Positions 36,633-55,669 of a stretch of DNA of 64,000 nt are shown piece by piece; the stretch's first letter is position 1, and every line of letters begins with the position of its first letter. The position numbers and the translations under genes are program-made. This DNA comes from Mobula hypostoma (taxonomy: Eukaryota), in assembly GCF_963921235.1 (NCBI RefSeq), contig NC_086097.1, positions 40,364,001 to 40,428,000 on the forward strand, given 5' to 3'. The notes under the pieces are model-generated. The model was given only the letters and a program-made list of their open reading frames with translations. It ran no database searches and had not been told where the DNA came from.

Positions 36633-37362
36633 TTACCCAACTGTGTCACTTCTGTCTGAAATGTGCATGGGATGTCTTGAACTTATTGGGGAGGGATGCA
36701 TTGTTTCACACTGAAACTCAGAGTTAGTTTCTCATTGCCTTGCTGCAATTCATTGCAGCACCAAATGAACTCAAGAAAGAAAAGCCAGCATGGATGGAAC
36801 TCCGGTAAAATAATAGACGATGCCTGTGATTTTCCACATGATGTGAATTCAGTTAAAGCAAGAGAGAAGTCTGGATCATTTGTGATCCAAATCTTTATTT
36901 CATTCTTGAAAGACCACGCCAATTTTTTTTGGCACTTTTGAGCTCAGTGGTCTAAAAATCATTAAGTCACAAGAAAATCATTGAATCTGCTGCCTGGTTT
37001 GCACATGCAGAGTCTGTAATTTGATTCTTAATTCATTTATGAGTCCAGAGCTAATGAAGTCTAGTTTTTAATGTTTATTTGCCCTCGACCAGTGAGTTGC
37101 AGAAATTCTCCATGCCCTTATTTTACCTTTGCCTTTCAGTATATTAAATTAAATTCTAAGTCTCCTCATGTCTTTCCAACCACATAGATTTAAGCAATTC
37201 ATATATCCTCTCCATTCCGACTGCATAAAACCTTCACTATTCCCTCCTCGTTTAGAAGCAGAGCTCTGTGCAAAGATTTCTCCATCAATTCCTGCCTTTC
37301 TCCCTTAAAAATATTTGCAGCTCCTCTCTTTGACTTACATTTTGGCTGCTCATGCAGAGTTA

Positions 37363-37769
37363 CAAAATACACATGGACTAAGATGTTAACTGTCCTGTGC
37401 TATCACCTGTGGGATCATCAGTTGATCTGCCACCTGTCTTCAGGAGTTTCGGCCCGCTTATGATCAAGACTCCCTCGAGGTGGTGGGCCAGCAGTGCTAA
37501 AGCACCACCTCCCACTGGTGAGCTTAAAAACTTGACATCTGCCTCTATCAGAGTTGTTGGTCACTTCCATCCAACAGATAGTCTGCTCTTCAGGTGTCTA
37601 TGCAACTACTGAAGGGTTTGCAAGATATGTATACACTGTCTGACTATCTGCCCCTCTGGACATACTTGGTCCACACCCATGCTGATCCTTTCTCTGCTGC
37701 CTCAGCTACAGCCCTGCTGGTTGACTTGATCTCTCTTCTAGTGAAGCCAAGGTCACACAGCCACTTCTG
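37363..37769 (-). mobile_element. 5'-truncated HERO-like (RLE-type non-LTR) element 3' end
   Basis: 37769-37644 translates QKWLCDLGFTRREIKSTSRAVAEAAEKGSAWVWTKYVQRGR*, which parallels TTDAAERASRWLWLKR at the end of the element at 52-54 kb. The two share a 3' UTR fold. Confidence 0.7.
37403..37521 (-). ncRNA. Non-circularly permuted hammerhead-like RNA with a k-turn
   Basis: CUGAUGA (37421-37415), GAAA (37450-37447) and GUC (37470-37468). Stem I is UUGAUC/GAUCAA and stem III is GGGAG/CUCCU; four further helices are present. Confidence 0.7.
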
Positions 37770-38049
37770 GTTATTCCTCCAATGGCTTGATCCAGATCTC
37801 TTCACATTGTTTTATCCACTTGTCATGTGCCTTGGGATGCATTTAAGATAATTGGGGGAAAAAACAGATCAAAATTGTTCTTATCCAAAATATACTACAT
37901 GGAACGGATAATGGAAACAAAGCTAACAGTAGTCCTTAAAGGGATACCAGTTCATACTTGAAAAGGAAAAGCAATTGCAAAGTTGAAGGAATAGACCAAG
38001 GATTATGTGGAAAGTTCTAACTAGTTCTTCAAAGAACCAATATTCATAG

Positions 38050-38630
38050 GTCAAAGTAAGTTTAGTATCAATATTTGTAAGTGTTGAGATTTACTTACTT
38101 GCAGATGTTTATGGGGAGTATCGATATACAGTGGAATTTATGAAAAACTATGCATTATCTGACAAATTTTGCACAGCATTGGCTGTACAGCCAATGTGCA
38201 AAAGAAGACAAACTGTGCATGCAAATAAAAAATAATACTGAGAACATGTATTATAAAGAGTCCTTGAAAGTGAGTCTGTAGGTTGTAGAATCAGTTCAGA
38301 GTAGTGGTGCAAACAACAGGAATTCTGCAGATGCTGGAAATTCAAGCAACACACATAAAAGTTGCTGGTGAACGCAGCAGGCCAGGCAGCATCTGTAGGA
38401 AGAGGTGCAGTCGACGTTTCAGGCCAAAGGGTCTCGGCCTGAAACGTTGACTGCACCTCTTCCTACAGATGCTGTCTGGCCTGCTGCATTCACCAGCAAC
38501 TTTTATGTGTGTTGTCAGAGTAGTGGTGGCTCATTTTTCCACACCATTTCAGGAGCTTGATGGTTGTAGAGTAATAACTGTTCCTGAACTTGACTGTGTG
38601 GGACCTAATGCTTCTGTACCTCATGCAAGA
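38050..38630 (-). mobile_element. Rex1-like 3' tail interrupted by a Penelope hairpin
   Basis: Homologous to the tail at 57636-58020. Translates YRSIRSHTVKFRNSYYSTTIKLL. Confidence 0.7.
38310..38514. mobile_element. Miniature fold-back Penelope pLTR insertion
   Basis: 79-bp arms at 38347-38425 and 38436-38514 with a 10-nt loop. Perfect 14-bp TSD TCAGAGTAGTGGTG (38296-38309 / 38515-38528). Confidence 0.9.
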
Positions 38631-41076: not shown

Positions 41077-44000
41077 TCTTTCAATATTTTTATTAGTTTC
41101 TGCATAGAAGAACACAGAGTACAAGAAGATATATATTATAAGACAAAAGAAAAAAATAAAATAGTACCAAATACATTGTATTAAAAATACAGTTACAATC
41201 ACACAATCCTGTATTCATAAAAATTAAATTAAATTGTAATATTGAAATATAATCATTTTGTTATACAGAAAAAAAGATCTAAACCCACTACCAAAGTCTG
41301 AGCTATTAGGAAAAGCAAGAAAAAAGGGGAAAAACCCTTATCATATAATAAAATATACTATCAGCCACCATCTGCACTTTTACAACAAATCAAAGGTTTT
41401 GAAAATAACACACAAATAGTCCCCACAATGTATAAAAGTCTTGGCTAGATTCAAAAACTGAATAACGGATCTTCTCCAAATTTAAGCATGACATAGCATC
41501 ACCTAACCATTGAGCATGAGTAGGCGAAACAGCATCCTTCCATTTAAGCAAGAGCGCTCTCCTAGCTATAAGAGAGACAAAAGCCAAAATATGCAAATCA
41601 GGTGTCTCCAAAATAAAGTCTTTTCCTCCAACAATACCAAATAATGTGTTCAAAGGGTTAGGCTGAAAATTTACCTTGAAAAGTACTGAGGTAGTTTGGA
41701 ATACTTCCTTCCAGTATCTTTCAAGGCCCGTCATGTCCAAGACATGTGAATCCATGAAGCTTCTCCATTATTACATCTATCACAGAAAGGAGATATATCC
41801 GAATAATAACAAGATAGCTTATCTTTAGACATGTGAGCCCTATGAAGCACTTTAAATTGTAAGAGGGAATGATGGGCACATAACGATGAAGTGTTAACCA
41901 ATTCAAAAATTTCTTTCCAAGTTTCCTCAGAGATTGAAGTCTGCAAATCTTGTTCCCCAAGATTTTTAATTTTGTCTATAGGAGCATTTCTCATTCCTAG
42001 TAACATACCATAAATATTGGATATTGAACCATTATAAAAAGGTTTCAAATTAAAAATTACATCTAATAAGTTCTTATCGAAACTGATAGGAAGTGTATAT
42101 AGTTGAGAACTCAGAAAGTCTCTAATTTGTAAATAACGAAAAAAGTAAGTTTTGGGTAAACTATACTTAGCTGACATTTGCTCAAACAAAAGAAGACTTC
42201 CTCCACAAACAAATCCTGGAAGCATCTAATACCCAATCTATCTCATTCTTTAAAAACTGCATCGGTCATCGAAGGTTTAAAAAAATAGAAAAAATGGGAC
42301 TAGACAAAGAAAATCTCAATAGACCAAAGAATTTCCTAAATTGTACCCATATCCTCAAAGTATAGATAGATAGATAGATAGATAGATATACTTCATTAAT
42401 CCCGAGGGAAATTTGGTTTCGTTACAGCCGCACCAACCAAGAATAGAGCGTAAATATAGCAATACAAAAACCACAAACAATCAAACAACAAAATGCAAAC
42501 TATGCCAGATGGAAAATAAGTCCAGGACCAGTCTATTGGGTGTCTGATCCTCCATGGGAGGAGCTGCATGTTCGATGGCCACAGGCAGGAACGACCTCCC
42601 ATGCCACCCAATGTTGTATCTCGGTGGAATGTGGCCGAAGTCCAACAGTAAAAAGTTCAATATCCGGTCTACAAACACGTTCCTCGATCGTAATATACCC
42701 CGGATTGCACCATCTGTTGTTAACCAGATCAATAAGCACCCAACTCCTTTGCGCTTACCGCTCTCAGTGCACTTCTGGTCAGCCCGAACGGTATTACCCA
42801 CCGAACTCCTCTTCTCCAAAAGTCTTTGTTGTCTCAACCCGGTCCTCTTTCCTCACTTTGTGATCCCCCTCTGCATCCTCTGTGTGTTTTCCTCCGGATT
42901 TCAGCAGGGGTGTCCGCCGCTCTGCTCGCTAAACCAGCCGGCATTAGCTGGTCCCCGGAATACACAATGCGACCTTGCTTCCGTCTCACGTGTCGGGATG
43001 TAACCATTTCCAGCGCTAAAAAAGACCCAAATAAAACTCTGTCTGCCAGCATGTTAGAGAGGGTGCAGCTTCGACGTGTTACCGTGAGAGAAAAAAATAC
43101 AAAAAAATAACGTAGGTTAAAAAGTAAGAAGAAGAAAGTAAGAATAGATCGGAATGGCTGTACCAGGCTGCATGCATGACTGGCACATGCACACTTTTAT
43201 GTTAAAGTATGTATGTTTAACTACCAAATTTTCAGTTAGTTTACTAAAAGATAAAGAGAGTGGGGATCCGAGAAAAGAAATAATAGAAAATTTATTAACA
43301 GAGTTAGCTTCTAAAGAAACCCATATCATACAGTCCTCATGGTTAATACAATAGATCCAAAATTTAAGATTTCATATATTGACTGCCCAATAATGAAACC
43401 TAAAGTTTAGTAAAGCTAAACCTTCATTCTTTGATTTCTGAAGATGAACTTTATTTAGTCGAGAATGTTTGCTTTTCCATATATAAGAAGATATAATAGA
43501 ATCGAGAGAATCAAAAAAAGATTTAGGAATAAAAATGGGTAACGCCTGAAAAAGGTATAGGTAAAATGTTCATTTTAACAGAGTTGATTCGGCCATCAAG
43601 GATAACGAAAAAGGCGACCAGTTTGATAGTGTCCTTTTTACAAAATTCAGTAAGGTAAGAAAATTTTCATTAAATAGGTATTTACAATTCTTGGTAATTG
43701 TTACACCCAAATAGGTAAATTGATTTCTTACAATTTTAAAAGGAAGGTTAGTATTAATTGATAACAAATTATTCAGAGGAAAAAGTTCACTCTTAGGTAA
43801 ATTATGTTTGTATCCTGAAAACTGGCTAAAACAAGAAAGAAGAGAAAGCAGAGGAGGTAGTGATGTCTCGACATTAGAAATAAAAAGCAATAGGTCATCA
43901 GCATAAAGCGAAACTTTATGAACAGTCCCTCTCCTTAGAATACCAATAATATCATTAGATTCTCGGAAAGCAATGGCTAAGGGTTCCAAAGCCAAATCAA

Positions 44001-44998
44001 AGAGCAAAGGGCTTAGGGGACTATCTTGTCTGGTTCCACATTGAAGTCTAAAAGGTTTGGAATTCTGAAAATTAGTAAGGACCCTAACAGAAGGAGATAG
44101 ATAAAATAATTTAATCCATTGAATAAAATCGGGCCCAAAATTAAATTTTTCTAAAGTTTTAAATAAATAATTCCATTCAATCCGATCAAAAGCCTTCTCA
44201 GCGTCCAAAGAAATCACACATTCCGATATCTCCTTAGAAAGGGAATAAATAACGTTTAATAAATGATGAATATTAAAGTGGGAATATCGATTTTTAATAA
44301 ATCCCGTCTCATCATCAGAAATGATAGATGGTAAAATATTTTCAATTCTACAGGCCAGAACTTTAGATAGGATTTTAGTATCAACATTAAGTAAAAAGAT
44401 TGGTCTGTACGAAGAGCATTGGGTTGGGTTCTTATTCTTAAGCGAAATAGAAGCTTCATAAAAAGATTGTGGCAACCTACCCGACTTAAAGGAGTCTGAA
44501 AAAACTGCACATAAATGAGGCATGAGCAGTGAGGAAAAAGTCTTATAAAATTCTGCAGAAAATCCATCAAGATCCGTAGCCTTCCCCGAGTGCAAGGAAC
44601 GTACAGCCTTGGCAATTTCCTCATACGAAATAGGGTGATCCAACTGTTTTCGGTTATCAACAGAAAGTGTAGGAATGCTTAATTGATCTAAAAAATCATT
44701 CATTGCAGTGTTATCTTTGGGAGGGTCAGAACTATGAAGTTTAGAATAAAATTCTTTAAAAATATCGTTTATTTCTAAATGGTCAGTTGTCCTATCACCT
44801 TTGACTTTACAAATTCCTTTAATTTGCCGTTTAGCTATAAAGGTTTTTAAATGGTTAGCCAATAATTTACCTGATTTGTCTCTGTGGATATAAAATTGAC
44901 TTTTATCTTTTAAAAGTTGAGTTTCAGTTGAATATGTTAAAAGAAGATCATATTTAGTTTGAATTTCAACACACCTTTTATATAAAGCAGGACCTGGA
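41077..44998 (-). mobile_element. 5'-truncated L1/Tx1-clade LINE
   Basis: ORF 43570..44862 has YRPIFLLNVDTKIL, SLDAEKAFD, GTRQDSPLSPLLF and LYADD; the C-terminal cysteine motif is CDRC..HMSW. 13-bp TSD AGGAATCTGTTTC (41064-41076 / 44999-45011) at a TTTC/AAA site. Confidence 0.92.
42364..43200 (-). mobile_element. Internally deleted Rex1-like element nested in the L1
   Basis: The 5' region (IVYSGDQL..RGCRGG; LVNNRWCNPG..VGLRP) is joined at about 42630 to the 3' end (RSFLPVAI..., TTTCCCTCGGGAT, (TATC)n tail). Confidence 0.8.
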
Positions 44999-46202
44999 AG
45001 GAATCTGTTTCAAATTGTAATTGGCAGAAGTAAGTATGAATTTCCAAACTGGAAATCCCTCAGTTCTGGTCAACACAAATCAGGTACTTGCATTTTTATG
45101 CAGTTAAGCTATTTGTGTTTCAGTGCTGTATACTCAATTATTGCATGTCATGTTACGTACCCCGTAACTGGGTTGCCAAACCAGCAGAAATGGATCACTC
45201 AGTTGGAGTCTGGAGTACTAGAACTAAGAAAGTTTTATTAAGGAAACAAGCAACACAGTAATCGAAAGGATAATAAATGCAACAGTTCAGTGATGATAAA
45301 CACACATGTGCACAGAATTAAGATAACAGCATCAATCAAGCTCTATCGTTGTCTAGGGGTAAATGACCAATTTCAAAATGACTCAAAGTTCAGTCCAGTT
45401 TAGTAGTTCAGTTCGCAGTAATCGTTGCCATGGCGGTGGACAACGTGGGGGAAGAGAGAGATAGAATAGGAACAACTCATCATTCAGAACGGCTTCACTC
45501 ACAGACCAGCAAGATGGCTCACAGACCAGCGAGATGGCTCACAAACAGCTTTTGGGCAGGTCCTTGGTGATGTCACCTGAGGTCACCGACTGTGACCCCT
45601 CCTCCAGATGCGGTCGATCCTCTGCAGTGAACCCGGCACCCAGGCAAGGGCGGACACACACCGGGTTCCCGCTGATCGTACCTTTCCACCCTTGTCGTTG
45701 TCTGGGACTTCTCACCCACTCGTGAGAAGCGCACCGCTTCCAGGGTCTCGTTACCTCGGGTGGCGTGTGTGTCTGTCTTAGCGAACCTGTCCCTTTTTAT
45801 CCCCCTGCTGGGGTATCGCCTGTCCATCACTTCAAACAGTTCAGGGCTCAAAGGGGGGAGCCGCTCCAGACAGCTCTTCCTCCCACATCCCTTCATTACA
45901 CATCTCCAGACGCTGCTCCATTGTTCCTTATCTCTCCTTCCCCTGAGGGCAGGTGGCAGACCAACTGCTGATGCCACTGATGCTAGCCCAGGCCAGCAAA
46001 CATCTTAATTTTATGTGTATTCTCGTAACACTTCCCCCCTTTAAGGATTTTTACCGGGAGGTAAAAATTACAAACATGACTACATTATCTGATACATACA
46101 CAATATACATCTTTAACAGTTATTTAGCTAATACAGAGAATTTGAAGCTGTCAACACCTTGACAGACAGTCATCACATTTTCTGTTCCTTTTACACGTGT
46201 TA

Positions 46203-53242: not shown

Positions 53243-54012
53243 CTTTCGAAAGCTGAACCACACTTGTATCCAATTTCTCATCCAGACAGTGTACGATGTG
53301 CTTCCAAGCCCATCAAACCTGCACACATGGGGCAAGGCAGAGTCATCTGCGTGCCCACTGTGATCCAAGCGAGGAACCCTGCAGCACATCCTCAGCGGCT
53401 GTGCAAGGGCACTTGATGAGGGACGGTACAGATGGAAGCATGATCAGGTCGTGAAGATCATCGCTGAAGCCATCAGCGCAGGAGTTGAGTGGGTGAAGTG
53501 GTCTCGACCCTCCAAGCAGACCATTGCCTTTGTCAGAGCTGGGGAGCAGCCAGTACCTGCCAAAAGAACATCTGCAGGCATCCTGACCTCTGCAAGGGAC
53601 TGGCAGCTGTCGATGGACCACGAACGGCAGCTGAAGTTCCCCAACCATATCGCAGCCACCACCCTGTGACCAGACATTGTCCTAGTGTCTGAGTCTACTA
53701 AGCAAGTGGTGTTGCTGGAGCTGACAGTCCCATGGGAAGATCGCTTGGAGGAGGCCTTTGAAAGGAAGCTCTCCAAGTACGCAGGACTGGTCAGCAACTG
53801 TCAGCAGGCTGGATGGAGAGCGAGGTGTCTCCCAGTGGAGGTTGGTTGTAGGGGATTTGCAGCCCGTTCTTTAGTTAGAGCCTTCAGCATTTTGGGCATC
53901 GAGGGAGAGAGGAAGAGGAGATCCATCCGCAGTACCACCGATGCGGCAGAGAGGGCCTCAAGATGGCTGTGGCTCAAAAGAGGGGAGCCATGGAGTCATA
54001 AGTAGCTAGCCA

Positions 54013-54130
54013 TCTGGACACAAGCTGGGGTCTGATCAGCCCCGGCTGGGTCACCTGGAGGAGGTTGTGTGATGTTGAAAGACCCAAAAAACCCGATGAT
54101 TCCAGGAACATCACTAAACATGTGTCCAGA
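54013..54130 (+). ncRNA. Structured HERO-like 3' UTR: same fold as 37403-37521 but with a mutated hammerhead core
   Basis: Helices UCUGGACACA/UGUGUCCAGA, GGGUC/GACCC, CCUGGA/UCCAGG and UGAUGU/ACAUCA, plus hairpin 54023-54047. Confidence 0.65.
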
Positions 54131-55669
54131 AGCATCAGTTGATGTATGTACACAGATTATTATGTATTGAAATGTACTGTTGCCACATAACAACAAATTT
54201 CATGTCATATGCCAATGATATTAAACCTGAAACTGATTCTGAGAAAATGTCTTGTGTACATTAATGAAACTATTAAACTGTTCTATTCAGCATTTTAATA
54301 TCATTGACAGTGATTTTAAAATCTGGTTATTAATGGGAATTGGATTTGATTTACTCATCAAAAACATTTTGTCTTTCGCACTTGAAAACATTATTGATCA
54401 TTTCAACCAGGCTCTAGCGGGTTACCATTTTTTGTTCATCATGGAAATTGCTTTTAAAGGAAAAGAAAATAAGTAAATTATATATTCTACGTTTCTTTTC
54501 AGACAGCTCCTTGCCTCTGTTGATGACATGACTCTGGTTGTGAGGTGACTGATGAGGCCAATGTGGGACTCACAGATGGAGCAAAAGTTACCTGATGGGA
54601 CAGGTTGGCGGTGGTTTGTGAAATAGCGTACTCCTTTACTCCTTACAGTGGGTTTCTGAGCATTGTTGAAACATGGATTCAAGGTCCACTACCCTGTACC
54701 GATGTATTGGCTCATGAAGAGTTTTATATTTGTGGATTTTAAAAGGAACATTTACTGCAACCTAATTATTTCAATTTCAAACAGATTATACACAGTTTCT
54801 CTAGATTCAGAACAAGATTTCCTCATGAATTCTTCGTGATAAGCAGAGAATCTTAAATTTCTAATGGTACTGCAATATTTTCAAAAGGTGCACTATATAG
54901 TTTGTTATCCGTACATTCAGGCTGGAATGCTGTTGGGGTGGATTTGGCTGGCTGATTCATAAAGATGTGAGAAATGGTTATGATGCAGTTTCATGAAGAA
55001 TGATGTTGATATAAAATTCTTTTCAGATTTGACAAAATAAAAGTTATTGCTTAACTTCAGGAGTGTCTTAATTCCACTACGTCAGCAGTATCAGACCTAC
55101 AGGCATTCAATGTTATGATCGTCAATGTTTAATAACATATACTGTCAGACAAACCAAGCTGCTATCTTTCTTTACCATTCCTGCTGTTTGCTCACTGAGC
55201 ACCCCATACCAAAATACATCCCCAAAAGTAATTACTCAACATATAAGAACAGAATTAAAACTTACATTAAAGTGTGGAGAGTTAAATTCAATCTGAATTA
55301 ATTTGTTAGTAATGTTGCAGAACAAAATTTATAGTATTGGTTTGTGTTTTTATAGAACACAAACCAATGCCATATCATATTGATTTGTCTTTTGATAGAA
55401 GTCTTTTTTTTAATGCTGTTGAACCTTCAAGTGAACTGGTTGCGTAAGTCTCATGGTAACAAGGTTTTATTGTCATCAATTGTCAATGTTTTGGCTCACG
55501 CAGCAACACAAACATCATGGTTCCATCAACTGTTGCAGATTGAAATTGGTGCTAGAAGCAATCTGGAACTCAAACATATTAAAGACCATTGATTGTTCTC
55601 ATCAGAGAAGCCAGTGATTTTTGAACATGTACACTTGTAATGGTAGGTGTGCTGATTCTGAATTTGAAT

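Follow-up and report, generated by a model that had tools for sequence, protein, structure and literature searches.

A predicted hammerhead-fold RNA with a permuted connectivity in the 3' untranslated regions of LINEs carrying a restriction-like endonuclease

We analysed a 64,000-nucleotide (nt) stretch of the Mobula hypostoma genome (contig NC_086097.1, positions 40,364,001 to 40,428,000; hereafter the window, with positions counted from its first letter) and find that its minus strand encodes, at 37403-37521, a 119-nt RNA that very probably belongs to a conserved hammerhead fold. The RNA lies in the 3' untranslated region (UTR) of a copy of a long interspersed nuclear element (LINE), here named family A, and the same fold accounts for most of the 3' UTR in a clade of LINEs that have a single open reading frame (ORF) with a restriction-like endonuclease. 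Judging from its sequence, the new feature is that the chain leaves the hammerhead core right after CUGAnGA (one pair later in two families) and enters a clamp helix and a hairpin. On balance we lean towards a genuine hammerhead-fold RNA of undescribed connectivity, which would act as a slow or protein-controlled ribozyme and whose uncut fold would serve as a 3' UTR module for the element reverse transcriptase (RT).

The minus strand of 37403-37521 reads letter for letter as in an initial annotation of the window, made from the sequence alone, which had proposed a pseudoknotted hammerhead-like RNA at this place. We number the RNA from its 5' end (RNA 1 = window 37521) and list its helices and core words in Table 1. 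The annotation had taken stem II to be replaced by a junction of helices; instead, GGCCC/GGGCC is stem II itself and gives the conserved G10.1-C11.1 pair. The CCACCU/AGGUGG pairing had been listed there and is retained, and its role, which had been left uninterpreted, is that of the helix connecting stems I and II in the type-SGC hammerheads described below. The window copy differs from the majority form of family A (74 distinct copies) at a single position within the 119 nt, RNA 114 (window 37408), where it has a private A.A mismatch in the outer (clamp) helix; 73 of the 74 distinct copies have U there, and the outer helix of the majority form is a perfect 12 base pairs (bp). The nested minimum-energy fold of the family A RNA is -46.3 kcal/mol (z = -2.2). 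An alternative 9-bp pairing of RNA 11-19 with RNA 37-45 was discarded, as it is not kept in the segments inspected in the other families.

We next consider how often such a motif is met. A three-block descriptor (CUGAnGA with an abutting stem I of at least 6 bp, U-H, and GAAA with a stem III of at least 5 bp, in any order) finds one site in the window, at the family A fold, and is met in 4 of 200 Markov-simulated 64-kb windows; with 5- and 4-bp stems it is met 0.305 times per simulated window. Since a bare motif match is not rare in simulated windows, the motifs alone are unconvincing, and it is the recurrence of the architecture with compensatory changes that carries the claim. Known ribozyme models do not recover the RNA: Rfam 15 gives nothing relevant at the gathering score across the whole window, only two noise matches, neither of them a ribozyme, in 37250-37700 at E <= 10, and no hammerhead match at E <= 1 in five relatives. 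The Rfam comparison that the initial annotation had suggested therefore returns no hammerhead model for the family A RNA or its relatives, which is expected for a pseudoknotted permutation. Rfam also finds no known ribozyme family in a full-length family A element (L052 1-4600), and a three-block hammerhead scan of the element for a second ribozyme gave the 3' UTR motif only.

The architecture was traced through distant relatives of the element. When the 618-amino-acid (aa) family A ORF was searched in metagenome contigs, 38 loci were obtained (best-segment identity 32-84%), 8 of which match the three-block descriptor, each lying downstream of the ORF on its coding strand, in the block order S-G-C, with no match on the reverse strand. 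Among the 15 loci that reach the end of the ORF, 8 have an intact motif, three have a decayed one (L092, L093, L120), two are partly deleted (L095, L096), two are without any motif (L091, L104), and in L084 the contig ends inside the motif. The intact loci make up families f1, f2 and f3, and a protein-profile scan of prokaryote genome contigs added f4, whose contig must be host contamination in a metagenome-assembled genome (MAG); a second contaminant locus among the prokaryote genome contigs (L141) is too short to use, and viral contigs held no relative of the family A ORF. A covariance model built from families A and f3 recovers f2 and a second site in the window, 54011-54132 on the plus strand (35 bits, E 2.8e-7), which belongs to another LINE, family B. 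The proteins of the six families are 36-62% identical, and nucleotide similarity between A and B is not detectable. Comparing the 3' UTRs of A and f3, similarity is confined to the fold and the tail (37525-37367, 83%), the 118 nt from the stop codon to the fold being unalignable. As separate observations, one f3 locus (L088 918-1763) has the fold directly after ORF residues 138-378, with the endonuclease part missing, and thus appears internally deleted with the fold kept, and at 1617-1698 and 29-99 the f4 contig has two additional features, namely a tRNA gene (65.5 bits) and a weak resemblance to the UnaL2 LINE 3' element (E 0.71).

Upon comparing one natural representative per family, in a hand-made segmentation anchored on the invariant core, we find that CUGAnGA, GAAA and the pairs A15.1-U16.1 and G10.1-C11.1 are invariant in all six families. 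The cleavage triplet conforms to NUH throughout, being GUC in family A, GUA in four families and AUA in one. The helices around this core are rewritten: stem I is paired in 36/36 cells with compensation at 6/6 positions, stem II in 30/30 cells (3/5 positions), stem III in 27/30 cells (4/5 positions, A15.1-U16.1 being invariant) and the 6-bp bridging helix of the CCACCU/AGGUGG type in 36/36 cells (4/6 positions). Over these four helices, 129 of 132 cells are paired and two-sided compensation is seen at 17 of 22 positions; in controls with the 3' partner shifted by 1-3 nt, the counts are 40-64 paired cells and 1-6 compensatory positions. The clamp helix, compared in five families, is paired in 53/55 cells with all 11 positions compensatory, and between this helix and stem II every family has a closed hairpin domain, 18-53 nt long. 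The covariation across six families supports the hammerhead-like pseudoknotted fold proposed in the initial annotation, which had named loss of CUGANGA, GAAA or NUH, or the lack of covariation in stems I and III, as findings that would count against it: the motifs are kept and both stems covary. That a structured 3' UTR carries hammerhead-like words by chance is hardly credible on these data. The core words with two abutting stems do occur in 2% of the simulated windows and no Rfam hammerhead model matches, yet the architecture recurs with compensatory changes in families that lack nucleotide similarity, and the fold is always on the ORF strand and just past the ORF.

To place the connectivity, we use the scheme of Eckert et al. 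(2023; PMC10085705), here in the part of that paper that treats block orders and type SGC. The hammerhead is split there into block S (stem III 5' strand, cleavage site, stem I 5' strand), block G (stem II 3' strand, GAAA, stem III 3' strand) and block C (stem I 3' strand, CUGAnGA, stem II 5' strand), which give six block orders and are assumed to be uninterruptible. Type SGC is natural and experimentally validated; a short linker connects its stems I and II, whose other sides are joined by a helix, it cuts in vitro and needs all four helices to do so, and its CUGAnGA runs into the stem II 5' strand with at most 1-2 inserted nt (PMC10085705). As far as type SGC (HRIMA-1 and its variants) is described in that part of the paper, the LINE fold resembles it in its S-G-C order, seen in the 8 descriptor matches and the window copy, in the same core nucleotides, in having all four helices, with a 5-bp stem II followed by a 0-1-nt spacer and the 6-bp bridging helix, in the short linker (here 2-6 nt) from the stem I 5' strand to the stem II 3' strand, and in crossing helices that form at least two pseudoknots. 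Measured against the same source, it differs in that the stem II 5' strand, succeeded by the bridging strand, precedes block S in each of the six families. What comes after CUGAnGA (in f1 and f2, after G10.1) pairs with the 5' end of the motif. Furthermore, the SGC termini are joined here by 2-7 nt and new termini arise from an 11-14-bp clamp helix, an extra 18-53-nt hairpin completes a four-way junction with stem II, and the context is that of LINE 3' UTRs, in contrast to the circular-RNA-like metatranscriptome contigs reported for type SGC.

The predicted fold is thus a circular permutation of type SGC that is opened inside block C and closed by the clamp helix and hairpin. Because Eckert et al. 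assumed uninterrupted blocks, the family A connectivity falls outside their six types and their searches. An ordinary type-SGC hammerhead, which would share the order S, G, C and the same four helices with similar lengths and spacers, is very improbable here, since the stem II 5' strand is upstream of block S in all six families, none of which has an uninterrupted block C, and the LINE 3' UTR setting differs from that of the published examples, as the part of the source used here presents them. The initial annotation had described the strand order as not a circular permutation of types I-III. This holds, the order being S-G-C with crossing helices; the order itself was already published as type SGC, and what is new is the exit of the chain after CUGAnGA. 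With the classical types I, II and III the RNA shares CUGAnGA, GAAA, NUH, A15.1-U16.1, G10.1-C11.1 and three helices that abut the core in register, and it differs from them in its non-circular permutation, its crossing helices, its stem II forming an arm of a four-way junction and its lack of an Rfam hammerhead match. We found no description of a hammerhead in a LINE 3' UTR, or of this connectivity, in the literature outside subscription journals, Repbase and Dfam.

Table 1. Features of the two LINE copies in the window and sources of the distant families (window positions; RNA positions refer to the 119-nt family A RNA).
Feature	Position or locus	Strand	Basis or partner
5'-truncated copy of LINE family A (full length ~3.6 kb)	37356..37770	-	genome-copy alignment
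Final 41 codons and stop of LINE ORF, family A	37644..37769	-	translation; same tail in longer copies
Hammerhead-fold RNA, family A, 119 nt	37403..37521	-	sequence and covariation
Clamp helix IIa (outer helix), 5' strand, RNA 1-12	37510..37521	-	partner 37403-37414
Variable hairpin IIc, RNA 13-32, 8 bp (13-20/25-32)	37490..37509	-	computed fold
Stem II 5' strand GGCCC, RNA 33-37, G33 = G10.1	37485..37489	-	partner 37451-37455
Bridging helix strand b CCACCU, RNA 39-44	37478..37483	-	partner 37430-37435
Stem III 5' strand GGGAG and U16.1, RNA 48-53	37469..37474	-	partner 37442-37447
C17 (RNA C54), predicted scissile bond between 37468 and 37467	37468	-	hammerhead-core position
Stem I 5' strand UUGAUC, RNA 55-60	37462..37467	-	partner 37422-37427
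Stem II 3' strand GGGCC, RNA 67-71, C71 = C11.1	37451..37455	-	partner 37485-37489
GAAA, RNA 72-75 (G12 A13 A14 A15.1)	37447..37450	-	same in six family representatives
Stem III 3' strand CUCCU, RNA 76-80	37442..37446	-	GGGAGU 48-53 / ACUCCU 75-80
Bridging helix strand a AGGUGG, RNA 87-92	37430..37435	-	partner 37478-37483
Stem I 3' strand GAUCAA, RNA 95-100	37422..37427	-	partner 37462-37467
CUGAUGA, RNA 101-107 (C3-A9)	37415..37421	-	CUGAnGA same in six family representatives
Clamp helix IIa, 3' strand, RNA 108-119	37403..37414	-	partner 37510-37521
Element 3' tail beyond hammerhead fold, family A	37356..37402	-	genome-copy 3' ends
Family B ORF end (endonuclease domain) and stop	53670..54005	+	45% identity over 103 aa to family A ORF
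Hammerhead-fold RNA, LINE family B	54011..54132	+	covariance-model match
Family f1	L083, L085, L087, L089		metagenome contigs
Family f2	L086, L106		metagenome contigs
Family f3	L088, L098		metagenome contigs
Family f4	L142		MAG contig; protein-profile scan of prokaryote genome contigs

The element that carries the family A fold was characterised through its copies. A 181-nt query against the 3.48-Gb genome of the species itself returned 1563 first-look candidates, the 40 scored ones being 98-100% identical, and genome copies match 37356-37770 with 93-99% identity, their 3' end being constant and their 5' ends varying. The apparent start of many copies at 37770 is an artefact, the reference being the truncated window copy. 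In other copies the 41-codon tail found in the window ends open frames that reach 618 aa. Encoded in these frames are the C-terminal part of an RT, a zf-RVT/CCHC knuckle and, visible in the translation, a PD...E.K endonuclease motif. In the profile search RVT_1 scores 31.9 bits in L052, whereas in L051 the scores of RVT_1 and zf-RVT fall short of the curated cut-offs; R2 proteins in the PDB match the family A ORF at E 8e-6. The fold begins 123 nt into the 288-nt 3' UTR. The ORF tail upstream, the constant 3' end and the frames with RT, CCHC and endonuclease motifs bear out the location in a LINE 3' UTR given in the initial annotation. As its frames indicate, family A is a single-ORF LINE that combines an RT, a CCHC knuckle and a restriction-like endonuclease and is a distant relative of R2; the label HERO, also used in that annotation, is to be taken as a lead only. 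ARAGORN finds no tRNA head in 37000-38200, so the repeat is not a short interspersed nuclear element.

Concerning the ends of family A, copies terminate at about 37356 (...GTAACTCT) or at 37364 followed by CAATTC. Across the 3' ends of L001-L050 two forms are seen, ...TATTTTGTAACTCT and ...TATTTTCAATTC, without poly(A), and families A, B, f1 and f3 have a UGUAU-like word close to the 3' end. We also observe four internally deleted family A copies in the same genome (L055, L063, L074, L081), which retain the first few hundred and the last 295-841 nt and in this are reminiscent of non-autonomous derivatives dependent on both ends of the RNA.

In family B, whose window copy ends at 53670-54153 on the plus strand, the fold makes up essentially all of the 3' UTR, beginning 5 nt past the stop codon and ending about 21 nt before the 3' end, and at least 1311 first-look candidates are present in the same genome. 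The window copy of family B has private core changes, CUAAACA, AAAA and GUG (G5, G8, G12 and position 17), and the natural copies L124 and L126 are canonical, with CUGAAGA, GAAA and GUA. A genome-wide count of exact matches to a 33-mer around GAAA gave 1277 with the GAAA form and 183 with the AAAA form (G12 to A). This site is a CpG, and the AAAA form may reflect decay after insertion. A reading in which family B has kept the fold and lost catalysis, suggested by AAAA in 13 of 21 sampled copies, was rejected, as that sample was biased by the query and the genome-wide count is 1277 GAAA versus 183 AAAA. Six of the AAAA copies share another variant and may form a minor subfamily with a dead core.

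Closer relatives of family A were compared in contigs of four other organisms at 80% likeness. A clamp pair has changed on both sides, from C4-G116 to U4-A116, both fixed in runs X9 and X10, with the U.G intermediate in X11. Otherwise, the 119 nt show in these organisms a single wobble-preserving change in stem II, three in linkers and, in one contig, a 1-base deletion; the core, stem I, stem III and the CCACCU/AGGUGG helix are free of listed changes. Among the differences listed, 6 fall in the fold (119 nt), 33 in the upstream 179 nt and 0 in the 39-nt tail, a contrast that is indicative only, as 44 further rows stand beside those listed. No accumulation of starts or ends is seen among these contigs, which by their nature would not reveal the ends of RNAs.

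What such a fold could do for the element is suggested by two other retroelements. In a Penelope-like element, the hammerhead needs the element protein to cut, cutting is dispensable for insertion, and the uncut RNA is the substrate (PMC11167929, in the sections used here). The R2 RT recognises a folded 3' UTR element to start target-primed reverse transcription (TPRT) (PMC12222951, likewise in the sections used). Combining the R2 handle with the dispensable Penelope-like hammerhead, we propose for the LINE that the uncut fold may be the handle of the RT. To the extent that these sources describe them, Penelope-like hammerheads are similar in that a hammerhead is conserved within a retroelement, and differ in having type I motifs within terminal repeats alongside a GIY-YIG endonuclease, in contrast to a permuted fold in a LINE 3' UTR with a restriction-like endonuclease. 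The R2 3' UTR elements (such as the R2Tg pseudoknot) are likewise compact pseudoknotted RNAs near the 3' end and the most conserved part of the 3' UTR; as presented in the sections used they are not ribozyme-like, and we found no relation to the family A fold in sequence or in Rfam.

In the mechanism that we favour, the fold would be a slow or protein-controlled self-cleaving or self-ligating ribozyme, and the folded, uncut RNA would be held by the element RT as TPRT begins. A cut after C17 would release the last ~112 nt (about 85 nt in family B), and cutting would withdraw the RNA from the integration-competent pool and would not be a step towards integration. The cut pieces would still be held together by 29 bp (clamp, stem II, bridge and stem III), which would favour religation or a silent nick. 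Self-cleavage in vitro at the predicted bond appears more likely than not. The full proposed role, combining an RT handle with control over cutting, is at best marginally probable. A stronger version, in which the RNA is an active ribozyme with a seventh hammerhead connectivity, the first self-cleaving one in a LINE 3' UTR, with the RT holding uncut RNA and unbound RNA cutting itself, remains a tentative proposal.

Several points weigh against the favoured mechanism. Conservation of the core nucleotides would be expected as well if only the shape mattered, and G10.1 is not covalently adjacent to A9 in four of six families. The pair counts depend on a hand-made alignment: MAFFT (11 sequences) misaligns the blocks, and the covariance model finds B and f2, misses f1 and shifts the crossing helices. 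The six families amount to about four independent lineages, A being close to f3 and f1 to f2. The stem III of family B has a U.C mismatch, the outermost stem III pair fails in f2 and f4, and the clamp helix of f4 can be traced over 3 bp only. Additionally, the genomic copies bear no mark of cutting. Among 29 copies selected on the last 111 nt, none starts at the predicted cut site, and genome-wide the 25-mer that follows the cut occurs in at least 582 copies, 567 of which are preceded by C and 15 by another base (11 by T). GUC is followed by a base other than T in 16 copies, and in 15 of these the element sequence just runs on. The integrated copies derive from RNA that was uncut at the predicted site, and the remark in the initial annotation that the inserted copy extends past this site is found to hold genome-wide.

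These counts also bear on a different use of the ribozyme, in which the cut product would be an intermediate of retrotransposition, either as an RNA end for the RT or as a nick crossed by template jumping. Ribozymes resembling that of hepatitis delta virus (HDV) are located at the 5' ends of the R2, RTE and L1Tc LINEs, and those of R2 process co-transcripts, a precedent for such a role. The family A fold is like them a self-cleaving ribozyme fold, here predicted, within a LINE transcript, and unlike them it is of another class, lies in the 3' UTR and has an internal predicted cut, whereas the HDV-like ribozymes are found at the 5' end, with their cut at the element boundary. One family A copy in the same genome, L049, ends ...GGGAGTCTT at the equivalent of window 37466, beside the predicted cut, with unrelated T-rich sequence after it; a cut RNA, a deletion or another insertion could each explain this copy. 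We consider this use improbable, as the predicted cut is 112 nt inside the element and copies cross it without insertions or deletions (exact junction in 567/582), with no excess of copies that start at the site (0/29; <=15/582) or end there (<=1/16 non-T cases, and L049).

The main rival of the ribozyme reading is a catalytically silent scaffold derived from a hammerhead, its shape kept only for recognition by the RT when TPRT starts; under either reading the core would be conserved. The uncut origin of all integrated copies and the folded RT handle of R2 fit such a scaffold, the opening of the chain at A9/G10.1 may not permit catalysis, and 183 of 1460 family B copies have AAAA instead of GAAA, though the CpG site may simply have decayed. 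Set against this, all hammerhead nucleotides known to be required for catalysis are kept in six families whose helices have been rewritten, where a pure handle could drift, the cleavage-site nucleotide is never G in six families, and the closely similar SGC architecture cuts in vitro (PMC10085705, in the part cited above). A silent scaffold is accordingly unlikely, though it deserves to be taken seriously, and the slow or protein-controlled ribozyme is the reading that we carry forward.

With regard to RNA structure, natural hammerheads would extend beyond the six orders of three uninterrupted blocks, and an exit of the chain at A9/G10.1 would be possible when a helical junction is present. 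The search space for ribozymes widens, as current descriptors and Rfam models miss such forms. For transposon biology, a ribozyme fold would be placed where LINEs with a restriction-like endonuclease meet their own RT, linking RNA catalysis to the choice of template in TPRT, and if the proposed role is true, a single fold would be both the RT handle and the switch that decides which transcripts can integrate. These elements are also relatives of the R2 systems for gene insertion, in the engineering of which a compact conserved 3' module could be used. In genome annotation, thousands of copies per genome would carry a potentially self-cutting RNA that is flagged by no current library; if true, about two thousand copies of two families in the genome of this species would be concerned, and sense copies within host transcripts could cut host RNAs.

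Finally, two further repeats were observed in the window. On the minus strand, 43570-45009 is an open frame of 479 aa that matches RVT_1 strongly (E 4e-33) and belongs to an L1-like LINE separate from the elements described above. At 38344-38514 lies a palindromic repeat of about 170 bp that resembles a miniature inverted-repeat transposable element, with arms at about 38344-38428 and 38427-38514 that match, in both orientations, sequences in at least 9 other fetched loci.

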